A stretch of 64,000 bases of DNA from Flectonema sp. DT1601 (Eukaryota): NCBI GenBank assembly GCA_964019425.1, contig OZ025782.1, positions 186,001 through 250,000 of the forward strand, given 5' to 3'. A program made the translations under genes and the position numbers. How positions within the stretch are numbered: the first letter of the stretch is position 1; the number at the start of each line of letters is the position of its first letter. Positions 14,671 to 64,000 of this stretch are shown here, one piece after another. The notes under the pieces are model-generated. The model saw nothing but the letters and a program-made list of their open reading frames with translations. It ran no database searches and was not told the origin of the DNA.

Positions 14671-17600
14671 CTATCTCACTGCTCCATCGATTTCCGATTC
14701 AGTTTCAGTTCGGCTATTGCTAGCTGACGGTCTCTCTCTGTCAGAACAAGATGACGATGATTTTTGTAATTCCCTTTCTATTCTCTCTGTTAAAGAACCT
14801 CCTTGAGGAGATGTTAGAGATGGGACTTGAGAGTTACCTGAATTCGGAGAATGTGTTGGGGTTTGTTTAACAGTACTATCCAACTCTGTGGCTGTTTCAT
14901 TATCTCTCTCATCATCGACTTTGATGGGAGCAGGTGACCAAGGCGACTGTGGTTTCTGCATTGAACCAGAACCAACTGTTGATCTCTTTGATGACACTTC
15001 TCTATCTGTAACATACGTACTCGTGAGACTGACATCACTTCCTGAAGTAGAGCAACGTCTGTGAATGCTGTTTTTAACAACAGATTCTTCATCTGAAAGA
15101 CCTGACATAAAATCTAAACTAATCAAATCGATAAATTCTCTCAAACTGTAGATAATATCATCCTGATCTTCACACGAAGTCACATCCACTCCGATAGCTT
15201 CAGCAGCAATAATCAGTTGAATCAGTCCAACGTGTGTAAAGAAAGATGCTCCGTCCATGTAACTTGTTATTTTATTAGCTAGTTCATCGCATAATTCACC
15301 TTTTATTTGGTAGTGGCTTGGATTTGGTAGTATCGAACTTGCAATCGCAGCAACATCAACTAGCGGAAGTGAATTAAAGTATTTACCCCACGTTGTTCTG
15401 GTTAATTCTCGATCTTCATCTCGAGATAACCAGAATTCTTTTATTAATCGAAGTGATCTCATGAGCATGGCGCAACCAAATATGGTTCCGAAGACGATCA
15501 GTGGCCCCCACATACTTTCTATTGACATTCCGTTTGTTAGTTCTTCATCCTCAACGACTTGTGTTACTCCACAATCAGGTGAAATCGCATGGACGTGTTT
15601 TGTTCTTAAGTTATCAATAATTCTGTGTTTTTTTTTTTTTTTTTTAAAAGTATTATTTAAATATTATATAAATAAAAAACAGAACAGTAGAATTATTAAA
15701 ACACACACACCTATCATTCAACAAGGTCATCGTTCCGTACGAGATAGCATCAACAAAACGACTTTCATAAGGAAGAGCAAAAGCTTTAAATAATTGTAAT
15801 TCACTGATGTCTGGACCTCTCAATTCAATTTCACAATCGGTTTGAAAAGGGAAGTAGAGCGTTGATGCTAAAGCAGCATCGATATTTTTTGCTTTGAGTT
15901 GAGATATGGCATCTGAATCGTTCGCGTAAGTCGTATAACCGGTCATTCGTAGACTAGGACCTGTCAAGATCGATTCCGTCGCAGACCCTTTAGGGACTCC
16001 TAATTTTGACATTCCTATCTTTCCAGTTTGAAAATCCTCAAAAGAATCAACTGGATACACTGAACTCCTCCTAGTTAAAAACGTCGTCAGCTCTGCAGTA
16101 TAAGAAGCTGTAAACACAATTGCAAAAAAAAACAAACCCGCCACCAACAATCTCCCAGAATGGGTTACCGGAGCGTTCTCATTAACCATAAAGAAAGATG
16201 TGAATGATAAGTATGAGACTGCTAAGAATCCTTCAAATCCACGGGGGATTAACTCATTTCGACCTGCTTCAAGACACCACAAACCAATTCCAGACATGAT
16301 AATTACAAATAAGGCTGCTAAGTATACTTCAGTTTGCATTGGAGTTAGAAATCTCCAGAGATCTACTCTGTCTGATGTTGGACGTTTTATCATTAGTCGT
16401 TTTGTATCAGTGGTCCAGGGTTGGGAAAATTTCAACAATCGTTGCCTGTCTGGAGTAATCGTTAAAGCAACCGCGAATATATCAAACTCACCATCGCCAA
16501 CTTGTTGTAATGTGTATCCATCTACGCAGTTCTTGTGATCACATTGATAACAAGAAATAAATGGACTATACGTAAATCCATAATTAGAACTAAGCGTGTC
16601 AACAATATCCCATAAAATACCCTTACCAACGCCAGATGATGTTCCGTAAGAAAGTCCATCATCTCGACAAGGAAAGATTATTTTTAAATGTTGGTTTCGT
16701 AGAACATCAGTCGGAGTTGGTCTCGAACCTCCAGGCCATTGAATACGTTCTGAGTCAACCCAAAGATCACTGCTAAAATTATAACCGCCGATGACGTTCC
16801 ATTGTGATGCTCCTCCGAACTGCTGTAAGTTCAATAAATCATAGTGTGATCCGACAAGAAACTCACTATCTAGTAACCTATCTAGTTCAGGAATGATATT
16901 CGCCAAACTGTAATCCCATTTCTTGGTAAAGACATCATGACATAAATTATTTTGATACGGATTCGTATGTCCTTGCGACGCATCCAGAGATTTCAACAAC
17001 AACGTCATCGACGAGAATGCCGCAATATAACTCGGGTTATCCTTATACGTTTGATACTCTGGCGTTGATATTAAATCAGGAGGAGTATACACTCTTGGAT
17101 AGAGTGAGAATATACCTTGAATATCATTATTTGAGGCCTTAAGAGTGGTGAACGATGATGGATTATCAAGCGGTAATCCTTCTGACGCAAACCAAACAGC
17201 TCCACGCCCGATGAGAGGAGGCTTAATACTTGAAGCAGCTGTCAATACCTGAACAGCTAACGCACCTGTTCCTAAAATGATATAAACTTGTGCCATGGAG
17301 CGCTTTGATGCATCTTCTAGTGTAGCAGTAACATTCAGCTGAAGAGGTATCGTTGTCACTTCCAAACCAGCTTTATAACCCTGTGAAATCATAGCTTCAA
17401 CAAGAGACAAACCGTTGTCTTGTTGCTCGTAGAAAGCCGTTGCCTTGTTCCATCCGAGTTTTACAATGAATTTTGATATTGCCTCAGCTTGATTCAAGTC
17501 TGTCAAAACAGTCCTTCTCAACGTTGAGTACAATAATGAGGTTGCAATGTCAGAAGCGCTTGCACCTGTCATCATGGGTATACCGTGAATGCTTGCTAAC

Positions 17601-17887
17601 CATCCGGCTAATTTTACTTCTTGCATACTATCAGGACCTATGATCCCAACGACATCTCCTTGAACTATTTCAGAACAAATTGCCTCAGCTGTACTAACTG
17701 TCGCTGAAGGTTTTCGTATTACGGGAGTCCAGGTAGAACTCTTTCCGAATTCTCTAACTGCAACATCTACGGCTGCGGATTTGTCTCCGTTCCAAAAACT
17801 TATAATCTTTTGTCCCGTAACATTATTAACAAAGCATATCAATAGTAGATACAACAGTAATGGGAAGGTAAAGTACTGGCGTCGCAT
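14671..17887 (-). CDS. Ionotropic glutamate receptor-like channel; exons 17887-15711 and 15622-14671 (1042 aa)
   Basis: Signal peptide, ANF/ATD domain (VVGIIGP), S1 (LTITPDRQRLLKFSQPW), M1-M3 with SYTAELTTFLT, S2. Intron 15710-15623 (GT...AACACAG) joins in frame to ORF 14671..15528, which supplies M4 (MWGPLIVFGTIFG) and a Ser-rich tail. Confidence 0.88.
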
Positions 17888-31251: not shown

Positions 31252-33378
31252 TCACGGGCTTTGTGGAAAGTTGCACAGTCCAGGCAATGTTGCAGGAGAA
31301 GTTTTCTCTTTCCATTCACTGCACGTATCGTCTAATAGTGAGCCGATTATAGTGGCTCGCTGTCCCTGAAGATGTTGTAGCTGTATTGCGAGATTGCTGT
31401 TGTCAGTTTTTTCAATTGGAGCGTTGCTTAGAAACCAATTAACCCCCTCTCCTCGTGTGAAGTCTTTCCCGCTGAGGAATTTACGAGGAACTGCAGTGGG
31501 AGAGAATGGAGTTGGAATCGGTGATCCAGTCTTACCAGAAATAACAGAACAGACGTCCAAAGGATTCAAAGGAAGTGGTGACGTTGATTCAACAGAGTCA
31601 CAATCAATAATCCCACCAGCACCTTGAGGGGTATCTATCATACATCCTTTTTTAGCATTAGCTCTAATCACCATTGATCTACTGCACATCTGTTCAGCAA
31701 TATCTTCAGCATCCTCATAGAAATAATGGTGAGCAATAAGCTGTTCTGCTGATAATCGTTGTGATGGTTCCATGCGAAGACAACCCTTTAAAAATTTAAT
31801 ACTGGCGAAACTAATACCAGGAGGAAGCTCTAACTGTGATGATGGATTACATATAATGTGAAGCATTTCAACACTGTTCGATTTGTAATGAGACCAAGGA
31901 ACCTCGGCTGTTAGCATTTCCATTACAGTGCAACCAGTTGACCAAATATCTGAAGCAAAAGATGCATCGTCCGTCTCTCGTAAAACTTCTGGAGACATCC
32001 AAAGAGGTGTTCCGTGCATTGACAGCTTCCTATTTGATCCTGACATATACTTGCATGATCCGAAATCAGCTAACTTCACACTCCCTTCGACAGTAAGTAG
32101 TAAGTTTGCACACTTGATATCTCTGTGGAGTACGTTATTCTCATGTAAGTAGGCTAATCCTTGTAATAATTGGAAGGTATACTGCACGACGGTTGACTCG
32201 TGTAGAGATCCAAAATTCTGAACCAAGAGCTGAATAGAACCTCCAGCTACGTACTCCATGAAGACGAGAGCTGTACAATCTTTCTTGTCGGCGAAGAGGT
32301 ACTTAACGATGTGTGGATGGTCAAATTTTTTCATGACGTCAATTTCATTTCGTAAAGCCGCCGCACGTTTTTCTCTATCAGTTATTGACGCTGCCATTGA
32401 AAATGTTATTTTCTTCACAGCCATGAGTTCTCCAGTTTCAACATTCAAAGCAACGTGAACTTTTCCAAACGCACCCTGACCTATTAACCCACCCTCCATC
32501 CAATCAGTCTTCTTTCTCGGAGAGTTCATATCTAATCCGGTATCTTGAAGACGCTTGACACGGTATCGTGGGGTTTCATTCTCACCAAGGGTTTCCATAC
32601 CTAGAGTTGTGCCTACTGAGTATGAATAAAGATCTGGTAGATTTGTTTGTGCGCCCTGCTCTCTGGTTGCTACACCAACAGACCTAACTGACTTACAGAA
32701 GGCACTTGGAGCTAATGATGCAGTACCTGTATTATGACAACTCCGCAGTTCATGTCTGGTGATGGAGAGACCCTCTTCAATGTCAGTTTTGTTGGTTTGC
32801 ATTGTAGGATCAGTCGCCTTATCTTTATTATCAAACACGCTGTTGGCTATTCCGATAATTAATTGAAAACACACTGCAATATAAGAAAGGTACACAGCTC
32901 CAGAAGGAGGTGGTCCCTCATTAAGTTTCACAACTTCTGAAATAGCCAACAAAGCAACCATTATCATACAATACACTATGTATATGATTTGTTTTTTTGA
33001 TGAAAAACCAGCAGTTTGAAGTGCCGTTGTACCACTCAAAGATATAACCCCAAGAGTACCAGCTTTGGTCATTCCACCAGACAAGTAGATCGACACAAAA
33101 GAAGAACAAGAGGTATAAAATACTATAATAGAAACAGCTCGTGGTATGGAAGTGGATCTCAATTCGGTTATCAACACAACAAGAAGACAAACAGCTAAAC
33201 ATTGACCGAATAGAATAGAAGATCTATAAGAATCTGATAACAACATTATTAATAACATCAACATAGAATACAACAACCACAACACGACGCTCAATCTCAT
33301 TAGAGTCTCGGCGTTTAATTTTCGTGGTACTGGTTCAGCCGGTTTCGCGGTGGCGACCACCGTGAAAAGCTCACCCAT
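31252..33378 (-). CDS. STE11/MEKK-like MAP3K with N-terminal multi-TM region
   Basis: About 6 hydrophobic helices, then GQGAFGKV, MAVKK, FMEYVAGGS, HRDIKCAN, DFG, GTPLWMSPE. Confidence 0.93.
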   Translation of the reverse strand: MGELFTVVATAKPAEPVPRKLNAETLMRLSVVLWLLYSMLMLLIMLLSDSYRSSILFGQCLAVCLLVVLITELRSTSIPRAVSIIVFYTSCSSFVSIYLSGGMTKAGTLGVISLSGTTALQTAGFSSKKQIIYIVYCMIMVALLAISEVVKLNEGPPPSGAVYLSYIAVCFQLIIGIANSVFDNKDKATDPTMQTNKTDIEEGLSITRHELRSCHNTGTASLAPSAFCKSVRSVGVATREQGAQTNLPDLYSYSVGTTLGMETLGENETPRYRVKRLQDTGLDMNSPRKKTDWMEGGLIGQGAFGKVHVALNVETGELMAVKKITFSMAASITDREKRAAALRNEIDVMKKFDHPHIVKYLFADKKDCTALVFMEYVAGGSIQLLVQNFGSLHESTVVQYTFQLLQGLAYLHENNVLHRDIKCANLLLTVEGSVKLADFGSCKYMSGSNRKLSMHGTPLWMSPEVLRETDDASFASDIWSTGCTVMEMLTAEVPWSHYKSNSVEMLHIICNPSSQLELPPGISFASIKFLKGCLRMEPSQRLSAEQLIAHHYFYEDAEDIAEQMCSRSMVIRANAKKGCMIDTPQGAGGIIDCDSVESTSPLPLNPLDVCSVISGKTGSPIPTPFSPTAVPRKFLSGKDFTRGEGVNWFLSNAPIEKTDNSNLAIQLQHLQGQRATIIGSLLDDTCSEWKEKTSPATLPGLCNFPQSP

Positions 33379-33641: not shown

Positions 33642-35396
33642 TTACAAACGTTTGTTAAATCCTATTGTTTGTGATTCACTGGTCATTGGTCCCCTTCCTT
33701 TCTTTCCAAGATAGTCGTGTATATCTTTACCTTTTCTAACAAAGTTACCAGTGTGATATTCGAATGATGCTCTGTCTGATGCTCTCTTGCTTTTACGAGC
33801 TCGGAAATGACCGATGTACTTTCGAAGAGGCTCTCGTAAACCTGGAGGAGTGAAGACGGTGGCACCTGATTTTGGATGCCAAGGATCAGCGTGAGTTGTG
33901 TACGTACCAATACTACCTTTTCTTGTTTCTGGTTTCATATGCTGGTAGTCTACATCCATCCCCCGACCTGCTCCATCAAGAGGAGCATAGTAGTGACTGT
34001 GCATTGCGGGAACATGATCTGGTAAAGTGATATCACGTAAACTTTTTACTCTCGCGAAGTCAATTATCATTTTATACGACAAGTGGGCTCCTCTTCCAAC
34101 AGCATTTGAGAGTTTACTTCCAGGTTGAAGGTTTTCACTAATCGATTTTGAATATTGTTCGGTCATTCTCTTCTGAACATACTCCGATGGGAAACAACCT
34201 ATATCTTTATACTTATCATAAAATAGAAACGCATGGTGTCTAAATCCTGTATCCAAACAACCAATAATCGTCATCTCCCAAGTTGATGCTTTTGGTTCGG
34301 TGTTTCTGTCTTTTTCAAGGAGTCGCCATATTCGAAGTACCGTATTAATCTCGTGAGTCTTGAATGCGCAATGTAATAAGGCCTCGTATGTGTCTGTGCT
34401 TCTTTTTAATCGACCATCGAATAGCTCATCATAGAGCTTTACACACTTAGCCATTTCACCTTTCTCAGCGAATACCCATATTAAGCTTGTTATTAAGGAG
34501 ACGTTTCTGCATCTGGCTAATCTGTCAGGATGTGATTCAAATATTTTTTGAGCAGTCATGTCGTCTTCTAATGTGGCGCAGCATCGAATTGCAGCGGAGT
34601 AGGCTTTCATTGGAATTGCTTCACCCTTTGAAATGGATCTATCTTTTAGTTCCCACCACAAATCAACCATGTCACTGTAACACTTGTTATAAGCAACTCT
34701 CGATTGCTTTGATTCCTCTGTGTAGGATATTGATATTTGACCTGGTTCTGATTTACCAACAGCTAGACCTGAGTCACTCGACATTTCCAAACTTTCCATA
34801 CAACGAAGTAAAACGTGACAGTGAGCCATCAGAACTGTATAGTCTCCAGTAGTAAAAATGCAATCATCGTATGTGTTTGTTATATCCTTATAAACTTGGT
34901 ATGGATGAGGACAATCATCTTCATCAAGAAGCAGACTAACTCTTTTATGAAATGAATAATTTTGCAATGCCGCTGCATAGTTTGATCTTGGAATGACTGC
35001 GAGTTGGATTGGTTGTAAATCTGATACAGCTTGTTTTATATTTAATTTTGGTAATGAAGTCTGTTTTGGTGATCTGAATGAATATTTTTTTACCGAATCA
35101 GTTGCAGCTGCTGCTGGTACTCCAACTCTTTGTTCCGATGAACGAGGAATATCATCTTGATTCAATACAGCAGAAGTTCTTGGATGTTCAATCTGTTTTG
35201 TCGGAGTCACAAAATTATATTTCTTCGCCTCTAAAGCTGCTGCATCATTTTTCACTCCTGCAGCAATCGTCGTGTCATATAGTCGGAATTTCCGCCTAGC
35301 CCTGCTATCAACAGCTGTGACACTCTTTGTAAAAATATATTTTTTTGTTCCCACTGTTGAACAATACCTTCTACCAACAGAGAGATGCATGTACAT
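33642..35396 (-). CDS. Pentatricopeptide-repeat protein, probably mitochondrial
   Basis: Presequence-like start (RRYCS); PPR-like units YSAAIRCCA, ITSLIWVFAEKGEMAKC, TYEALLHCAFK, TWEMTIIGC. Confidence 0.75.
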   Translation of the reverse strand: MYMHLSVGRRYCSTVGTKKYIFTKSVTAVDSRARRKFRLYDTTIAAGVKNDAAALEAKKYNFVTPTKQIEHPRTSAVLNQDDIPRSSEQRVGVPAAAATDSVKKYSFRSPKQTSLPKLNIKQAVSDLQPIQLAVIPRSNYAAALQNYSFHKRVSLLLDEDDCPHPYQVYKDITNTYDDCIFTTGDYTVLMAHCHVLLRCMESLEMSSDSGLAVGKSEPGQISISYTEESKQSRVAYNKCYSDMVDLWWELKDRSISKGEAIPMKAYSAAIRCCATLEDDMTAQKIFESHPDRLARCRNVSLITSLIWVFAEKGEMAKCVKLYDELFDGRLKRSTDTYEALLHCAFKTHEINTVLRIWRLLEKDRNTEPKASTWEMTIIGCLDTGFRHHAFLFYDKYKDIGCFPSEYVQKRMTEQYSKSISENLQPGSKLSNAVGRGAHLSYKMIIDFARVKSLRDITLPDHVPAMHSHYYAPLDGAGRGMDVDYQHMKPETRKGSIGTYTTHADPWHPKSGATVFTPPGLREPLRKYIGHFRARKSKRASDRASFEYHTGNFVRKGKDIHDYLGKKGRGPMTSESQTIGFNKRL

Positions 35397-42083: not shown

Positions 42084-42497
42084 TTAAAGAGATTTATCAT
42101 TTGGGGAGAATTGAATTAAATCTCTACTCTCGTTCAGAGTAATTTGATAATTGTTGAAAACTCCTTCTCTTCCAATGGCTGCTCTAACATTGCTTCCTTT
42201 GTCTGCCCAGGCAACTGGAATAGTTGTAGGAGACGCCCCAGGACCTGGTTTCATTACCAACATACGAGGTGTGTAGCCGATTCGTCCTGTTGCTTCTGTG
42301 ACATAGTTGGAGTGAATCTCACCAGGGTGTTTCTGATATCCCATAGACCTACCCATCGTATACGGAAGTATGCTTTTCCAACTACCGCTGTCAATAATAA
42401 ATCGATCGCTTCTCCATTCTCCACCCGGTTTTTTAACTTCTAATTGCGGTGTTGGTTTCCAAACTACAGCATGTGGATCCCACTTACTCGACGGCAT
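42084..42497 (-). CDS. Stand-alone retropepsin-like (clan AA) aspartyl protease
   Basis: FIIDSGSWKSILP catalytic motif and AAIGREGVFNNYQITL C-terminal motif; 137 aa. Confidence 0.7.
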   Translation of the reverse strand: MPSSKWDPHAVVWKPTPQLEVKKPGGEWRSDRFIIDSGSWKSILPYTMGRSMGYQKHPGEIHSNYVTEATGRIGYTPRMLVMKPGPGASPTTIPVAWADKGSNVRAAIGREGVFNNYQITLNESRDLIQFSPNDKSL

Positions 42498-44905: not shown

Positions 44906-45911
44906 CTTTTTTTTTTTTTTTTTCTTCCACTCTTCTTTCCCTTTAGATAATAAGGCAATAAAAACAACAAAAACAAAAGCAAAGTATCAAATAACATTCA
45001 CTCGCTCTGTCTATGAAAATCGTATCCTGATGAGAGAATGGAGGGTCAAATGAATTAAAATACATCGACATCACAGTGCTAACCAAGTATGATGCTAAAC
45101 CGTTTGAGGTATAAACAAATATAAAAAAACAACAACAAAAAACAAAACAAAAAAAAACAATCTTAGGCAAGGGGATACATACAGCAATTAACTGTATTTT
45201 CATTTTTTAAAAAATTATTTTTTGTGTGCTTTTTTTAATTTGCTTGTTTTTCAAGCTTTTTTAGATCAATCCGAAGGCCATGTGAGAAAATTGGGGGACA
45301 GGGTGACCATCGACGTGTTCTCTAACTATTTTCCATGGTCAATAGTTAGTTCAACGAGTTGCTCCTCTGTTGATAAAAAAAAGAGAGGAATAGTCGCTAA
45401 GCAGCAGCTGTACGGAGTTCCATAAGTAACACCGTCAGCCTAGAAACAACAAAGAATATGTTCCCTACAATGTTGCCTAACGAGCTACTAAATAAAATGA
45501 AATAAAGTGAACTAGAATATGGCCTGACACATCTCTTCGTCATAGTGCTGACGAAGATGAATCAAAATCAGTCCACAAGTTTCATCGCTCACAAGTTTTG
45601 CGCGGGTCAATATCGTCTTTTTTTTTTTTGATTTTTTTGATTTTTTTTTTTTTTTTTCCAATTTTCCTTTTCAGAAAACACCAACACGGCAAAATGCACT
45701 AAGTAACAACCAAACCATGCCTTCTCTTCACACGATAGGTCATGATCAGAGAAAAGGAATAGTTTGTGTCGTAGTTTATTGGCGTAACGATACTAATTGT
45801 TTTTTTTTTTCTTTTTCTAAACTTAAACAGACGAAGTGACCTCTTGAATGAAAATAAAAATTTAAGAAATGAAAGATTTCACTTCTAAATAGTGGAGCAG
45901 AGTGAAGTTAT

Positions 45912-46370
45912 TTATGCCTCATCTGGAGCACCAGTCTTCTGACGAGCCTGTTCAGCAGCTCCAAGGAACTTGACTCTGATGGCACCGTTTCCGTAACAAA
46001 TGAGAAGGATCCAGTTGATAACCTGACACATGATGATACCTGCTGCTGCTGCACGTGCTGAGTCTCTAATCTCAGAATCGATGTTGTCATTGTCAGCCAA
46101 CTGAAGCCAGAACTCAGTCTGAGTCATCAAGTAAGCTCCAGCCATGGCACAGAATCCAACAATTACTTGAGACCATTCCTCAGCCTTGTCAGTGAACACT
46201 GCTACAATCACGCAGACCAACAAGAAGAATTCAAACCAACATCCCCACCACAGAGGTCTCATTGCTTCATTGGACAGGTTTGCCTTGTCATGGTAAGCTG
46301 CGGTACCCGCCAACAACAGAAGCCAGGCGATCAAAGTGAGGACTAGAAGAACGATGGTAACAACACGCAT
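45912..46370 (-). CDS. 4-TM membrane protein, LCI1/Sho1-TM-like (copy 1, 152 aa)
   Basis: ATG at 46370; near-identical to 47238..47696; motifs LTLIAW..AG..KAN, WWGCWFE, AAAAGIIMCQVIN. Confidence 0.8.
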   Translation of the reverse strand: MRVVTIVLLVLTLIAWLLLLAGTAAYHDKANLSNEAMRPLWWGCWFEFFLLVCVIVAVFTDKAEEWSQVIVGFCAMAGAYLMTQTEFWLQLADNDNIDSEIRDSARAAAAGIIMCQVINWILLICYGNGAIRVKFLGAAEQARQKTGAPDEA

Positions 46371-47237
46371 TTTTTGTTTTTTAAAAGTGTTTTTTTGGAT
46401 AACTAAATAGCTGTGAGGAAAGTTACAATAAGTAAAAAGCTCGGTGACCAACAAATAATCCACGAGAATATCCTTCGAGAGGAGGCCGGCTGGTGTGTGC
46501 CTTGGCAGGCTGGTACCAAATTGATGCGCAAAAATGACACGGCCAACAAGGATCTTAAAAAACAACAACATACACGCTATTTTTGAAATTGTATCCTGTA
46601 AGAGAATGGGTTGGTTAATCGGTTTGTATATTTTTTAATACAACCAGGCAAATAGACCAATCTGAAGGCAATGCGAGTAAATTTGGAGACGACAGAGACA
46701 ATTGACGTGTTCTCTATCTATTGACCATGGTCATTAGTTGGTTCAACGACTTGCTCCTTCTGTTGATCGAGAAAAGAGAGGAATTGCTGATAGAAACAAC
46801 AAAATAATTTGTTTCTAACAATGTTGCTTAACGAGCGATTAAGTTGGAATAAAACAAAACGAAAAGAGAGAAGAAGTACATGTGACGGAGACGACAGACC
46901 CCTTTCACAAGTTCTACATGCTTTACATTAGGGTCAGCTTCGCGTATCTTTTAATTTTCTTTTTTCTTTGAACTTTCTTGTACAGAAAATGCCCCCCCGG
47001 ATGGGTGACTAACTACATTTTGAGATTTTTCAAACAAGATTCCTTCTCTTTACACTTTAATTCATGATCAGAGAAAAGGAATAGTTTGTGTCGTAGTTTA
47101 TTAGCGTAACGATACTAATTGTTTTTTTCTTCTTTTTCTAAACTTAAACAGACGAAGTGACCCCAGTCATTGAATGGAAATAAAAATTTAAGAAATGAAA
47201 AATTTCACTTCTAAATAGTGGAGCAGAGTGAAGTTAT

Positions 47238-47696
47238 TTATGCCTCATCTGGAGCACCAGTCTTCTGACGAGCCTGTTCAGCAGCTCCAAGGAACTTGAC
47301 TCTGATGGCACCGTTTCCGTAACAAATGAGAAGGATCCAGTTGATAACCTGACACATGATGATACCTGCTGCTGCTGCACGTGCTGAGTCTCTAATCTCA
47401 GAATCGATGTTGTCATTGTCAGCTAACTGAAGCCAGAACTCAGTCTGAGTCATCAAGTAAGCTCCAGCCATGGCACAGAATCCAACAATTACTTGAGACC
47501 ACTCCTCAGCCTTGTCAGTGAACACTGCTACAATCACGCAGACCAACAAGAAGAATTCAAACCAACATCCCCACCACAGAGGTCTCATTGCTTCATTGGA
47601 CAGGTTTGCCTTGTCATGGTAAGCTGCGGTACCCGCCAACAACAGAAGCCAGGCGATCAAAGTGAGGACTAGAAGAACGATGGAAACAACACGCAT
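47238..47696 (-). CDS. 4-TM membrane protein, LCI1/Sho1-TM-like (copy 2, 152 aa)
   Basis: Tandem duplicate; I see 3 nt differences (one T/S change, two silent) and a shared ~170-nt downstream flank. Confidence 0.8.
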   Translation of the reverse strand: MRVVSIVLLVLTLIAWLLLLAGTAAYHDKANLSNEAMRPLWWGCWFEFFLLVCVIVAVFTDKAEEWSQVIVGFCAMAGAYLMTQTEFWLQLADNDNIDSEIRDSARAAAAGIIMCQVINWILLICYGNGAIRVKFLGAAEQARQKTGAPDEA

Positions 47697-48079
47697 TTTT
47701 TGTTTTTTTTGTTTTTAAAGATAACCAAAATAGCTGTGAGGAAAAAAAAGCAGATTCTCTACATCTTGTAACTAGTAGAAAACATCTCGCGAGGTCGAAC
47801 ATATTTTTTTGTTCCAACACATTAATTGAAAATTAAATACCAATTTAAAAAAAAAAACTCACAAAGTTATATTTTCGTCCCATCTGTTTTTTTTTTTTTT
47901 TTTCGGTCGGAAAATAAATAAATACCATTAGATATATATGGCTCCACGTAAAAGTGATGATTTTCTTAATTAAATTCCAATAGTACTCATGAGGGTTTCA
48001 GCACCCGATTTTTTTTTTATTTGATCCCGATATATGGGAACCGCAAGAAAAACACATCGGATTAGGTTGGGGCAAAAGT

Positions 48080-51382: not shown

Positions 51383-53852
51383 CATAGATGGAAGTGCTCC
51401 AAATTTGGAGGGCGCCTGGTGAAAATCAGCCACAAAAATTTGTAGGGCCATTGTAGGGCCAAAATAGGGCGCTGGAGGGCGCTTTTTTAATTAAATTTAA
51501 TATAATGCCGAGCTCATTTTGACACACCCCTGCCCTCAGCGAGGTCGAATCGTATCTTATTTGACTTTTCTCCGGTTCGCCTGATCAAATGCGTCTCTGG
51601 GATATCAGTTTACTTGCCGCCAGTAAACTTCTTTTTTTTCTCACACGGTACCGTGAAGACCGGCCTATTAACGGTTAGCAGGAACGCACTCTCCCTCCTC
51701 GAATCCCTCTATATTCGACTCGGTGCATTCTGCGGGCTAATCAGCTCCTTGTAGATCTGGGATGCATTGTCCACTGAAATGAGTTTCAGCTTCAGGGATT
51801 GCAGCAGGCTCCGGAAGCTCTCAAGGAGTAGCCCATCGTTTTTGCCATTGTTGACCGCCGAACCATGACCTGGAGGTCTCGGGTTCGAACCCCGTGACAC
51901 CCTTTTTTCTCTTTTTCGAAAGACTGCCAAGCATGTCAAAAATTTTTTTGGCTTCTGCGTCAAAATACTTGTGTGTCGGTGTAAGTCCCCGTCAATTTAG
52001 CTGTCTTATAGTAATAAAAAAGGTAAAAAAAAGCGCCCTCCAAAATAATATTTATATTAACCCTTACACCACCGGAGCTGATATATCAGTCTGAAAAAAA
52101 AATTTTTTTTTGCTAAGTGAAAATTTTGCATTTCTGAGTACAACGATTTCACGGGAGAGGTATTATTGCGATGTCTTTTATGTTCCTTACGTGTTGCGCC
52201 GCAATAGTTTTTATTAAATGGTAAATTTTCCATTTGCTAAAGCTGGCCAAAATCAACTTGGGAAATATGTCGGTCCACAGTTCTGATGAGGATGCAACAG
52301 TATTTGTTAATCCATCGTCGGTGTGCTCCGATTCGTCACTTGACGAAGTATCTGACTCCAAATGGGGAGGGGAGGTAACAAGGGTTACCAAGAATAAAAA
52401 CGCGTTTCCAAGAAACGTTAAAGATTAGAGTTGCACGCAAGTCGGAGCTGCAGGTTTTTGAGCTTTTCTTCAGATAGTCAGTTTTCCAGCTGATGAAGAA
52501 AAACTCTGAGGTCTATGCCTCACAGAGGGGAAGAAAATTTAAAACCGGTACGCAGGAGCGAAGGGCCTTTGTTGGCACAACACTACTGACGCGCCTCCCA
52601 ATAAAATCTAACCTGGGGGATTCCTGGGGTTTGAATGACATGCTGTTGACCCCCCTGTTGTTCTTTCCGCAAGTGTTTTCACGTAATCGCTTTGCCGAAA
52701 TACTGAGGAACTTACACTTCTCTGCGATATTACCTGCTCCCGAGCATGAGGATCCGAAGTGGAGACGTGTATTTTGAATTCCTTTATCCTGATGCGACGT
52801 GGGCATGGTGGAATTTGGACGGATAGTAGTGAATCTGGCTGGAGAAGCAAGAGATTCTTATCCTTCAAATTGGCTTTGTTTTGGGCAGCTTAGGTACATT
52901 TAAACGTACCAGAGCGGCACCAACACTATTAATAACACCATCAGTACCGCCCTCTCCACAATCAGTATCAATCCCTGATCGCCTCAAGCCAGCTTTGGGA
53001 CACTACCCCGGAAAGATGGAAAAGGCTCGTCAGTGTGCAGTTCGCGCAAAGCGCGCACAATCACTAGATTACTGTGAGCGATGCAACCAAGCGCTTTGTG
53101 CTTACCCATATTTCAAAAGGTATCACATTCTCCAAAACTACAAAATTCCTTGTGATGTTCCTAAACCGCCAACTTCCCAAAATCCAGTATGCCAGGCTGG
53201 TGGGGTAAAGAGGTGGAAGTTTATAGATCCAGCCCAACAGGTCTGATCTAAGTAGCTGCACTGTTACTAATGAAGTTCCATGATCTGGGATCGATGTTAT
53301 TTGTATTTTTCGAGCTTATCAACCCCGATGCGGTAATCCTCCTGTGTGTCTGAACCTGCTGTGCCATGATGCGGGTTGTTTGTGTATTTTCCGCGACCAC
53401 AGAGGGCTTTTACAAGCTCAAAAAAACAGGGAAAAAATCTGATTTTTCGATTTAATATCGGCCGTGATTTGGCATTCTCTTTACTTGGGCTCCCTCTGAC
53501 ATGATGTTGCGCAGAAACATCATCCCTTTCAAAATACGGGAAGGGAATAACATGCAGCTTCTATGAATGGAAACCGTTGAGTACGTTATTGCGACACTGC
53601 CGACTTTGTTAGTTCTGCTGAATGTGCAACAACGTACCAAGGTACGCACCGTTAGGTGTGTGAGTGACAGGTGCTATTGACCCGTAGGAGTAGTTGTGTC
53701 CGGTTTGGTACATAGGTTTTCTGGGGGGGTACCTTTTCTCTTTTTGAAAAAACAGTAAAATTTTGGACCCGTCGTTTTGGGGGTTCTTACGGTGGTGTAA
53801 GGGTTAAAAGCGCCCTACACGCCCTCCAAATTGTAGGGCACTTCCATCTATG
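51383..53852. mobile_element. Non-autonomous TIR element (CATAGATGGAAGTGC termini), interrupted by a piggyBac
   Basis: 15-bp perfect TIR plus subterminal AGGGC/GCCCT motifs; (AAT)n on both flanks; second copy at 59593-60215. Confidence 0.85.
52061..53803 (+). mobile_element. Degenerate piggyBac transposon
   Basis: TTAA|CCCTTACACCACCG...CGGTGGTGTAAGGG|TTAA. Remnants FSRNRFAEILRNLHFS and a Cys-rich C-terminus CAV..YCERCNQALC..FKRYH. Confidence 0.93.
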
Positions 53853-54582: not shown

Positions 54583-55278
54583 TTAAACAGAATTCAACGT
54601 ATCTAATGAATCAGGTTGCTGTTTAATTATCAATTCTTCGATCTGTTCTTTTTCATCTTCGCAATTGATGTCTTCGAGTTCGTGTGTTTCTCTGAACTTC
54701 AGAGTTGGTATTCTAATTCCGTATGATCGACAACCATTCCAACCCTGACATGTTAGTATAAGAGATAACGCAATTACTGATATTGTGTATTTAGTTGTTT
54801 TCTCAAAAGGATTTAACTGCTCTGGAAACCATATTCTTGTCGTAAAGTAGAACGGCATTAGACACAAACCAACAACAAGTAAACCTTTCCAAAATATTAG
54901 CGGAAATGATCGAACTGATTTCATACGTGCATTTGCGATGTTCAATTTTATGTCAGTTTTTGGAAGATCAGCTACTTCTCTATGATTAAAATATATCTGA
55001 AAACCCACTACTGGAATAACAGCAACAACAGACATACCAAACGCAAATGTCACTGAACAACCCAACCGTATGAGCAGTGCAGTAACCAGTCCCACAACAA
55101 TTTCAGCAGACACTCCGCTGATAAGAAGACTTCTTCGATGAGCTTCAAACACTTCCTTCTTTCTCTTTTCACACGTAATTATTCTTCCAGAACCGAATCT
55201 TCCATTTGGATAGTAGATTGTGCTTCCGTCTTCCTGATCAGCGAAGACAGTTTCTACCATTCTGTCCAAGAATTCCAT
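54583..55278 (-). CDS. 4-TM membrane protein, paralog A
   Basis: MEFLDRMVETVFADQEDGSTIYYPNGRFGSGRII...; paralogous to 58662..59357; start chosen by alignment of the two copies. Confidence 0.7.
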   Translation of the reverse strand: MEFLDRMVETVFADQEDGSTIYYPNGRFGSGRIITCEKRKKEVFEAHRRSLLISGVSAEIVVGLVTALLIRLGCSVTFAFGMSVVAVIPVVGFQIYFNHREVADLPKTDIKLNIANARMKSVRSFPLIFWKGLLVVGLCLMPFYFTTRIWFPEQLNPFEKTTKYTISVIALSLILTCQGWNGCRSYGIRIPTLKFRETHELEDINCEDEKEQIEELIIKQQPDSLDTLNSV

Positions 55279-58661: not shown

Positions 58662-59357
58662 TTAAACAGAATTCAACGTATCTAATGAATCAGGTTGCTG
58701 TTTAATTATCAATTCTTCGATCTGTTCTTTTTCATCTTCGCAATTGATGTCTTCAAGTTCGTGTGTTTCTCTGAACTTCAGAGTTGGTTCTTCTATTTTG
58801 TATGATCGACAACCATTCCAACCTTGGTGTATTAATGTGATGGAGAATACGATTATTGATATTGCGAATGTTGTTGTTTTTTGAACTCCACGCAGTTGAT
58901 CCGGAAACCAAACTCTAATTGCAAAGTACAACAGTATCACATACAAACCAACAACAAGTAAACCTTTCCAAAATATTAGTGGAAAAGATCGTACTGACCT
59001 CGCTCGTGCATTTGCGACATTCAATTTTATATTTGTTTTTGGAAGATCAGCTACCTCTCTTCGATTAAAATATATTTGAAAATAAAATATCGGAATACAA
59101 GCAATAAATGCCATCCCATGCGCAAATTCCACAGAGCAACCCAACAGCATCAGCAGTAAGGGACTAACTCCTGTAACTACTCCAATACACACTCCGCTGA
59201 TAACAAGATTTCTGCGATGAGCTATAAATACTTCCTTCTTTCTCTTTTCACACGTAATTATTCTTCCAGAACCGAATGTTCTATTTGGATAGTGGATTGT
59301 GCTTCCGTCTTCCTGATCAGCGAAGAAACTTTCTGTGAATCTGTCCAAGAATCTCAT
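58662..59357 (-). CDS. 4-TM membrane protein, paralog B
   Basis: MRFLDRFTESFFADQEDGSTIHYPNRTFGSGRII...; last ~40 aa identical to paralog A. Confidence 0.7.
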   Translation of the reverse strand: MRFLDRFTESFFADQEDGSTIHYPNRTFGSGRIITCEKRKKEVFIAHRRNLVISGVCIGVVTGVSPLLLMLLGCSVEFAHGMAFIACIPIFYFQIYFNRREVADLPKTNIKLNVANARARSVRSFPLIFWKGLLVVGLYVILLYFAIRVWFPDQLRGVQKTTTFAISIIVFSITLIHQGWNGCRSYKIEEPTLKFRETHELEDINCEDEKEQIEELIIKQQPDSLDTLNSV

Positions 59358-62875: not shown

Positions 62876-64000
62876 CTCCACAAGACCGTGACTGTAGTAT
62901 CCGATCAGTCAAACTACCCTGCCACTGATTTTCACTTTAACAGCGAGCTATTAGTATATATTATTATGTCAGCTGTTTAAAAGAGAGGGAAGGGCTAAGC
63001 ATGCGATGTCTTCAACTTCAGAGTTGGTTCTTCTATTTTGTATGATCGACAACCATTCCAACCTTGGTGTATTAATGTGATGGAGAATACGATTATTGAT
63101 ATTGCGAATGTTGTTGTTTTTTGAACTCCACGCAGTTGATCTGGAAACCAAATTCATTATTATATCTCCCATTCTGTCGAAAAGCAATAACTAAAGAAGA
63201 GGAGAGACTTAATTCAGACGAGGAAAGAAGCCTCGAACACGAGGAGAGGATATAATCATCTCATTGATAATAACAAGCGTTTTGAATAAGATCTTTTCTT
63301 TGGCTCCATCATCATTATGGTTAAATATTAACAATTAGTTACACCTGACCAATACCGAGTATAAGATTCATCCCCAGTTTGTCCGAAGCATTACATTGTA
63401 ATGAGGGAGTACCGAAAAAGCTTTATATAAAAGTACCTCAAAAAAATTGGGAAGCGCGCAGCCCTTTCACAGCAACAAATGAAAACAAAAGGTTCACATA
63501 TATGATGAACGGTCAGTTTATCGCTGGATCAGTATGCATTTTGCTAAGAAAGTTAGTAGGAAATAAAAATATTGTTGGGATTGTCAAACAAACGAATAAA
63601 AATAATTCGTTCAAGACATCAAACAAATAAAATAAATTAAACAAATAATTAAATAAGTTAGTATTAATGTTTATCAGTCAAAAGAAGGGGAGAGGGAGGG
63701 AAAATTCAATCGAATGCAAAAGTTCGTAGGTATTAGGAAGTTCTAAGGGACTTCAGTTAGTTAATTAGCTAGCAGTATTAGTAAGTTCTAAGGGACTTCA
63801 GTTAGTTTAGTTAGCAAAATACAAACTGATGACTACGAGGGGTCTGGGTAGCCCGCATCAGTAAGTACCCAATCGCGAAGATTGTACTTTCACAGCTTCG
63901 GCTGGAAGTGATCGACTTCCAGCCTCCACCTTGCCCAGAGGCTAACAGGTTGTAAACAACTAAAGAAAATAAAAGAGAAATGATCTGGGAGTGGGGGGGA
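62876..64000. repeat. Segmental duplication, copy 2 (runs off the window)
   Basis: Matches 55308-56095 and 56403-56735. Confidence 0.9.

Follow-up and report, generated by a model that had tools for sequence, protein, structure and literature searches.

The closest described system is LCI1 of Chlamydomonas reinhardtii (Cre03.g162800; PDB 6BHP), which is, both by sequence and by predicted fold, the closest solved structure to the proteins analysed here. In the accessible parts of the literature it is described as a plasma-membrane homotrimer with four transmembrane (TM) helices, and as a channel that conducts CO2 passively and may be gated (PMC9614477, PMC12988405, PMC10096703, PMC13159521, PMC10473226); its plasma-membrane location, its part in CO2 uptake and its induction at low CO2 via CIA5/LCR1 are reported in two of these sources (PMC10096703, PMC10473226). 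As far as the available portions of the following papers go, LCI1-like genes are confined to bryophytes and green algae (PMC7027989) and are missing from diatoms (PMC5853954), from Nannochloropsis oceanica (PMC3499364) and from Ulva (bioRxiv 10.64898/2026.07.16.738900). LCI1 is a candidate for engineering carbon concentration into crops, with a mechanism that has so far only been proposed. A second system to be considered is Sho1, the osmosensor of Saccharomyces cerevisiae, which according to the accessible part of PMC4411306 forms an oligomer built as dimers of trimers and signals osmostress to a MAPK cascade. Outside subscription journals and the AlphaFold DB clusters, we found no literature joining LCI1 and Sho1. 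Likewise, in the literature searched outside subscription journals, the wordings 'LCI1-like', 'LCI1 homolog' and 'LCI1 family' were not found, and the LCI1 passages covered in papers that also mention 'euglen' describe no euglenozoan LCI1 homologue, although such a link may exist elsewhere.

The window (the whole 64,000-nt stretch of DNA that was analysed) carries on its minus strand a tandem pair of genes for four-TM LCI1-like proteins, each with an ORF of 152 aa: copy A (P0001; 47238-47696, ORF intron-free) and copy B (P0002; 45912-46370). Their starts are 1326 bp apart, and the two sequences differ at 3 of 459 nt, leading to a single residue change (S5/T5). The near-identical tandem pair announced in the preliminary description is therefore present, as are the motifs quoted there. 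The duplicated unit includes the coding sequence and the near UTRs, and spans 47039-47744 for copy A and 45717-46421 for copy B, with 95.8% identity over 711 nt. The farther 3' flanks, in contrast, are more diverged (46653-46784 for copy A and its counterpart at 45262-45391, downstream of copy B) and only 82.6% identical, which makes an assembly artefact unlikely. Letters of the copy B type are present only in part in run X1, which speaks neither for nor against two copies. Taken at the level of sequence, the contrast between unit and flank suggests a real and older duplication, the coding part of which would have been homogenised recently. A 332-nt contig of run X1 (record 4) matches 53 nt of TM3 (window positions 47431-47483) with 7 differences and then diverges; it is possibly a diverged paralogue located elsewhere in the genome.

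Copy B can also be read as a protein of 219 aa from an upstream ATG. This reading was rejected on account of a pyrimidine-rich, acceptor-like CAG motif that both copies share, found by sequence inspection on the minus strand: it lies 39 nt ahead of the start codon in copy A (47734-47744), and the identical 11 nt recur in copy B at a distance of 42 nt (46411-46421). The motif in copy A is likely a trans-splice acceptor, and its presence at nearly the same distance in both copies indicates that translation likely begins at the start of the 152-aa form.

The 19 ORFs in the window that reach 120 aa are all on one strand, and a separate count of longer ORFs gave the same picture (18 of 18). Two apparent short GT-AG introns interrupt the proteasome ATPase gene. 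Unidirectional gene clusters and sparse canonical introns are features of the heterotrophic diplonemid Diplonema papillatum, according to the available part of PMC10161547. From this genome layout we infer that the host would be a diplonemid-like euglenozoan and likely heterotrophic; the heterotrophic euglenozoan that had been suggested earlier is upheld to the extent that the layout of the window fits that source. The neighbours of the LCI1-like pair, namely a protein with a trichohyalin-plectin domain, a coiled-coil protein and the proteasome ATPase, give no hint of its function. A look-up of eight neighbouring ORFs yielded entries for four of them, none with a named relative.

Other parts of the window hold a second duplicated pair, of 231-aa membrane proteins without a Pfam match (54583-55278 and 58662-59357, minus strand; ~73% identical), and a further 99%-identical partial copy of the 231-aa gene at about 62876-63671. 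The N-terminal 95 aa of this pair weakly match a hypothetical protein from an Azospirillum plasmid (30%, E 5e-4), and a bacterial origin is possible. The repeat-rich region beyond 49 kb contains, at 52493-52777 on the plus strand, part of a DDE transposase (PF13843, E 6e-6). The minus strand also carries an ionotropic glutamate-receptor-like gene (ANF_receptor, Lig_chan; 15653-17887) whose ORF apparently enters an intron before the last helix, a PPR-repeat protein that is probably mitochondrial (33642-35396), a 137-aa protein (42084-42497) that weakly matches aspartyl proteases (E 0.23) and has DSG at the position of the catalytic motif, and a protein kinase (Pfam Pkinase; 31252-33378) with a hydrophobic and probably multi-TM N-terminus. 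The kinase, which we take to be MAP3K-like in appearance, is possibly a membrane-bound sensor kinase.

Three protein searches, covering lengths of 83-303 aa and scoring about 8,000 candidates in each of the last two, returned as relatives P0003 (84% identity), P0010 (45%), and P0011 and P0012 (45-46%), and no green-algal or fungal relatives within these lengths. Cluster look-ups added P0005 and P0013-P0016 to the family. P0011-P0016 have a longest-contig value of 704,270 in common, which suggests six paralogues on one contig. No relatives were found by scans of metagenome contigs, viral contigs, prokaryotic genomes and plasmids that are sensitive to close matches only, and neither the window proteins nor the family members match Pfam or NCBIfam at curated cutoffs. 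A match to DUF6350 in one of five members (E 9e-4) was rejected as chance.

The AlphaFold model (mean pLDDT 84, pTM 0.74) consists of membrane-length helices at residues 2-29, 34-60, 63-92 and 99-126, with a C-terminal helix at 129-146. An alignment of eight sequences (P0001, P0003, P0010-P0012 and P0014-P0016), which leaves out P0002, P0004, P0005 and P0013 as near-duplicates or extended readings, contains 48 invariant columns, including H27, D28, R38, E47, E86, D93, N119 and R132. W120 is invariant across the family, and the conserved residues of TM2 and TM4 are W41, W42, F46, E47, F49, G111, I113, M114, N119 and G127. The short C-terminal tail is kept up to the stop in P0003; those of P0010-P0016 are divergent or end after TM4, perhaps at an intron site.

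Sequence searches with relatives and profiles gave LCI1 as the sole match (E 1e-4 to 6e-4), and the match was weaker for the window protein alone (E 0.017) and for query A1 (E 0.12). Superposed on 6BHP, the predicted four-helix bundle fits to within 2.3 A across 129 residues (24% identity), and 35 of 115 HMMER-aligned positions are identical, among them G22, A24, W41, W42, F46, E47, F49, M82, G111, M114, N119 and G127. Both a profile match and a structural match to LCI1 were thus found, and the proposal that these proteins follow LCI1 through each of the four helices but have a shorter first loop finds support in sequence and fold searches alike. We regard homology to LCI1 as highly probable.

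Given this homology, a channel role has a little less than an even chance. More specifically, we tentatively read the protein as a channel of the LCI1 type that lets CO2, or a small solute like it, pass passively; our grounds are the amplification of the gene and the Glu/Asn conserved within the membrane. The compact four-helix protein would act like LCI1, presumably in the plasma membrane and as a predicted homotrimer, with CO2 or a similar small solute as its putative substrate. Since a carbon-concentrating sink is lacking in cells that have no Rubisco, flux would most probably run outward, venting respiratory CO2 in connection with pH control, or would alternatively supply anaplerotic carboxylases. 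In a genome that is transcribed polycistronically, amplification of the gene would increase the dosage of an abundant membrane protein.

Alternatively, the proteins could be stand-alone membrane sensors or scaffolds of the Sho1 type, whose helices would oligomerise and change shape under osmotic or membrane stress, and whose SH3-free cytosolic face would recruit a MAP-kinase module. Our comparison used the 19 residues named in the accessible part of PMC4411306. Residues A124, A127, W139 and I140 of Sho1 TM4 are in register with A105, A108, W120 and I121 (p 0.0012 by shuffling), and W67/W68 coincide with W41/W42 (p 0.15), but the test is post hoc, with four groups of few residues and a TM2/TM4 match that was first spotted by eye; moreover, the TM1 set finds no placement and the TM3 set fits best on the wrong helix. 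For the likeness to the Sho1 TM domain raised in the preliminary description, TM4 agrees, TM2 agrees weakly and neither TM1 nor TM3 does, so that it counts as no more than a lead. In the same source, W139/I140 are required for osmosensing by Sho1, and the matching W120 is the invariant tryptophan of the family. The spacing from G to WW also resembles that of Sho1 (17 in Sho1 and 19 here, compared with 52 in LCI1), and the second Atlas cluster (0.88) is an Ascomycota family, but one that carries no name, that of Sho1 included. A sensor of this kind would have no SH3 domain, as the ORF stops at 152 aa and Pfam detects no SH3; a tail-less sensor is nevertheless conceivable, because the plant four-TM protein PM19L1, which is SH3-free, complements sho1 without sequence homology (available part of PMC12089654). 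On balance, we consider a Sho1-type sensor unlikely.

A true LCI1 homologue might also serve structurally, organising the membrane as an abundant tetraspan protein (through domain formation, curvature or partner trafficking) comparable to MARVEL, MS4A or tetraspanin-type proteins. This is likewise unlikely, and slightly more so, since fold matches of these types do not exceed 13% identity in the VIA-align lists (nor does AWPM-19, PF05512) and stay under the lead level in the Atlas, none of five members matches the MARVEL (PF01284), AWPM-19 or tetraspanin families of Pfam at E<=1, and a Glu/Asn pair conserved within the membrane speaks for a functional site. That an unrelated, lineage-specific family converged on such a hydrophobic four-helix bundle is very improbable, because three divergent queries and two profiles led to the same PDB chain in a collinear register across the four helices, the fold search agreed, and the controls were negative.

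We return, then, to the LCI1-like channel as the preferred reading. It is doubtful that these proteins belong, together with LCI1 and the membrane domain of Sho1, to one old eukaryotic four-TM family, in which the euglenozoan members would be minimal, loop-less CO2 channels of the LCI1 type in non-photosynthetic cells. If true, algae would have recruited their carbon-concentrating channel from a protein with a general role in gas, pH or membrane stress or, by another route, a channel would have been passed from algal prey to predator. Through these proteins it becomes possible to test where the channel originated and whether it is kin to Sho1. A divergent homologue without the loop in a likely heterotroph also points to residues E47 and N119 and to the WW..F E motif, and represents a natural test of the role of the long TM1-TM2 loop.

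The comparison with known systems can be drawn as follows. With Sho1 the proteins share four TM helices and a short first loop, WW at the start of TM2, and, within TM4, A..A and WI that line up with residues given in the accessible part of PMC4411306, but the cytosolic linker and the SH3 domain of Sho1 are missing here. Relative to LCI1, the proteins are smaller (152 versus 192 aa), their gene is duplicated, their host likely belongs to a plastid-lacking lineage without a carbon-concentrating mechanism, and TM1 and TM2 are linked by 7 residues instead of about 40. Because of this short link, we file them as a distant homologue or variant and not as an LCI1 orthologue; the proteins are a distant, loop-less homologue of LCI1 in a likely heterotrophic euglenozoan, and are not filed as Sho1.
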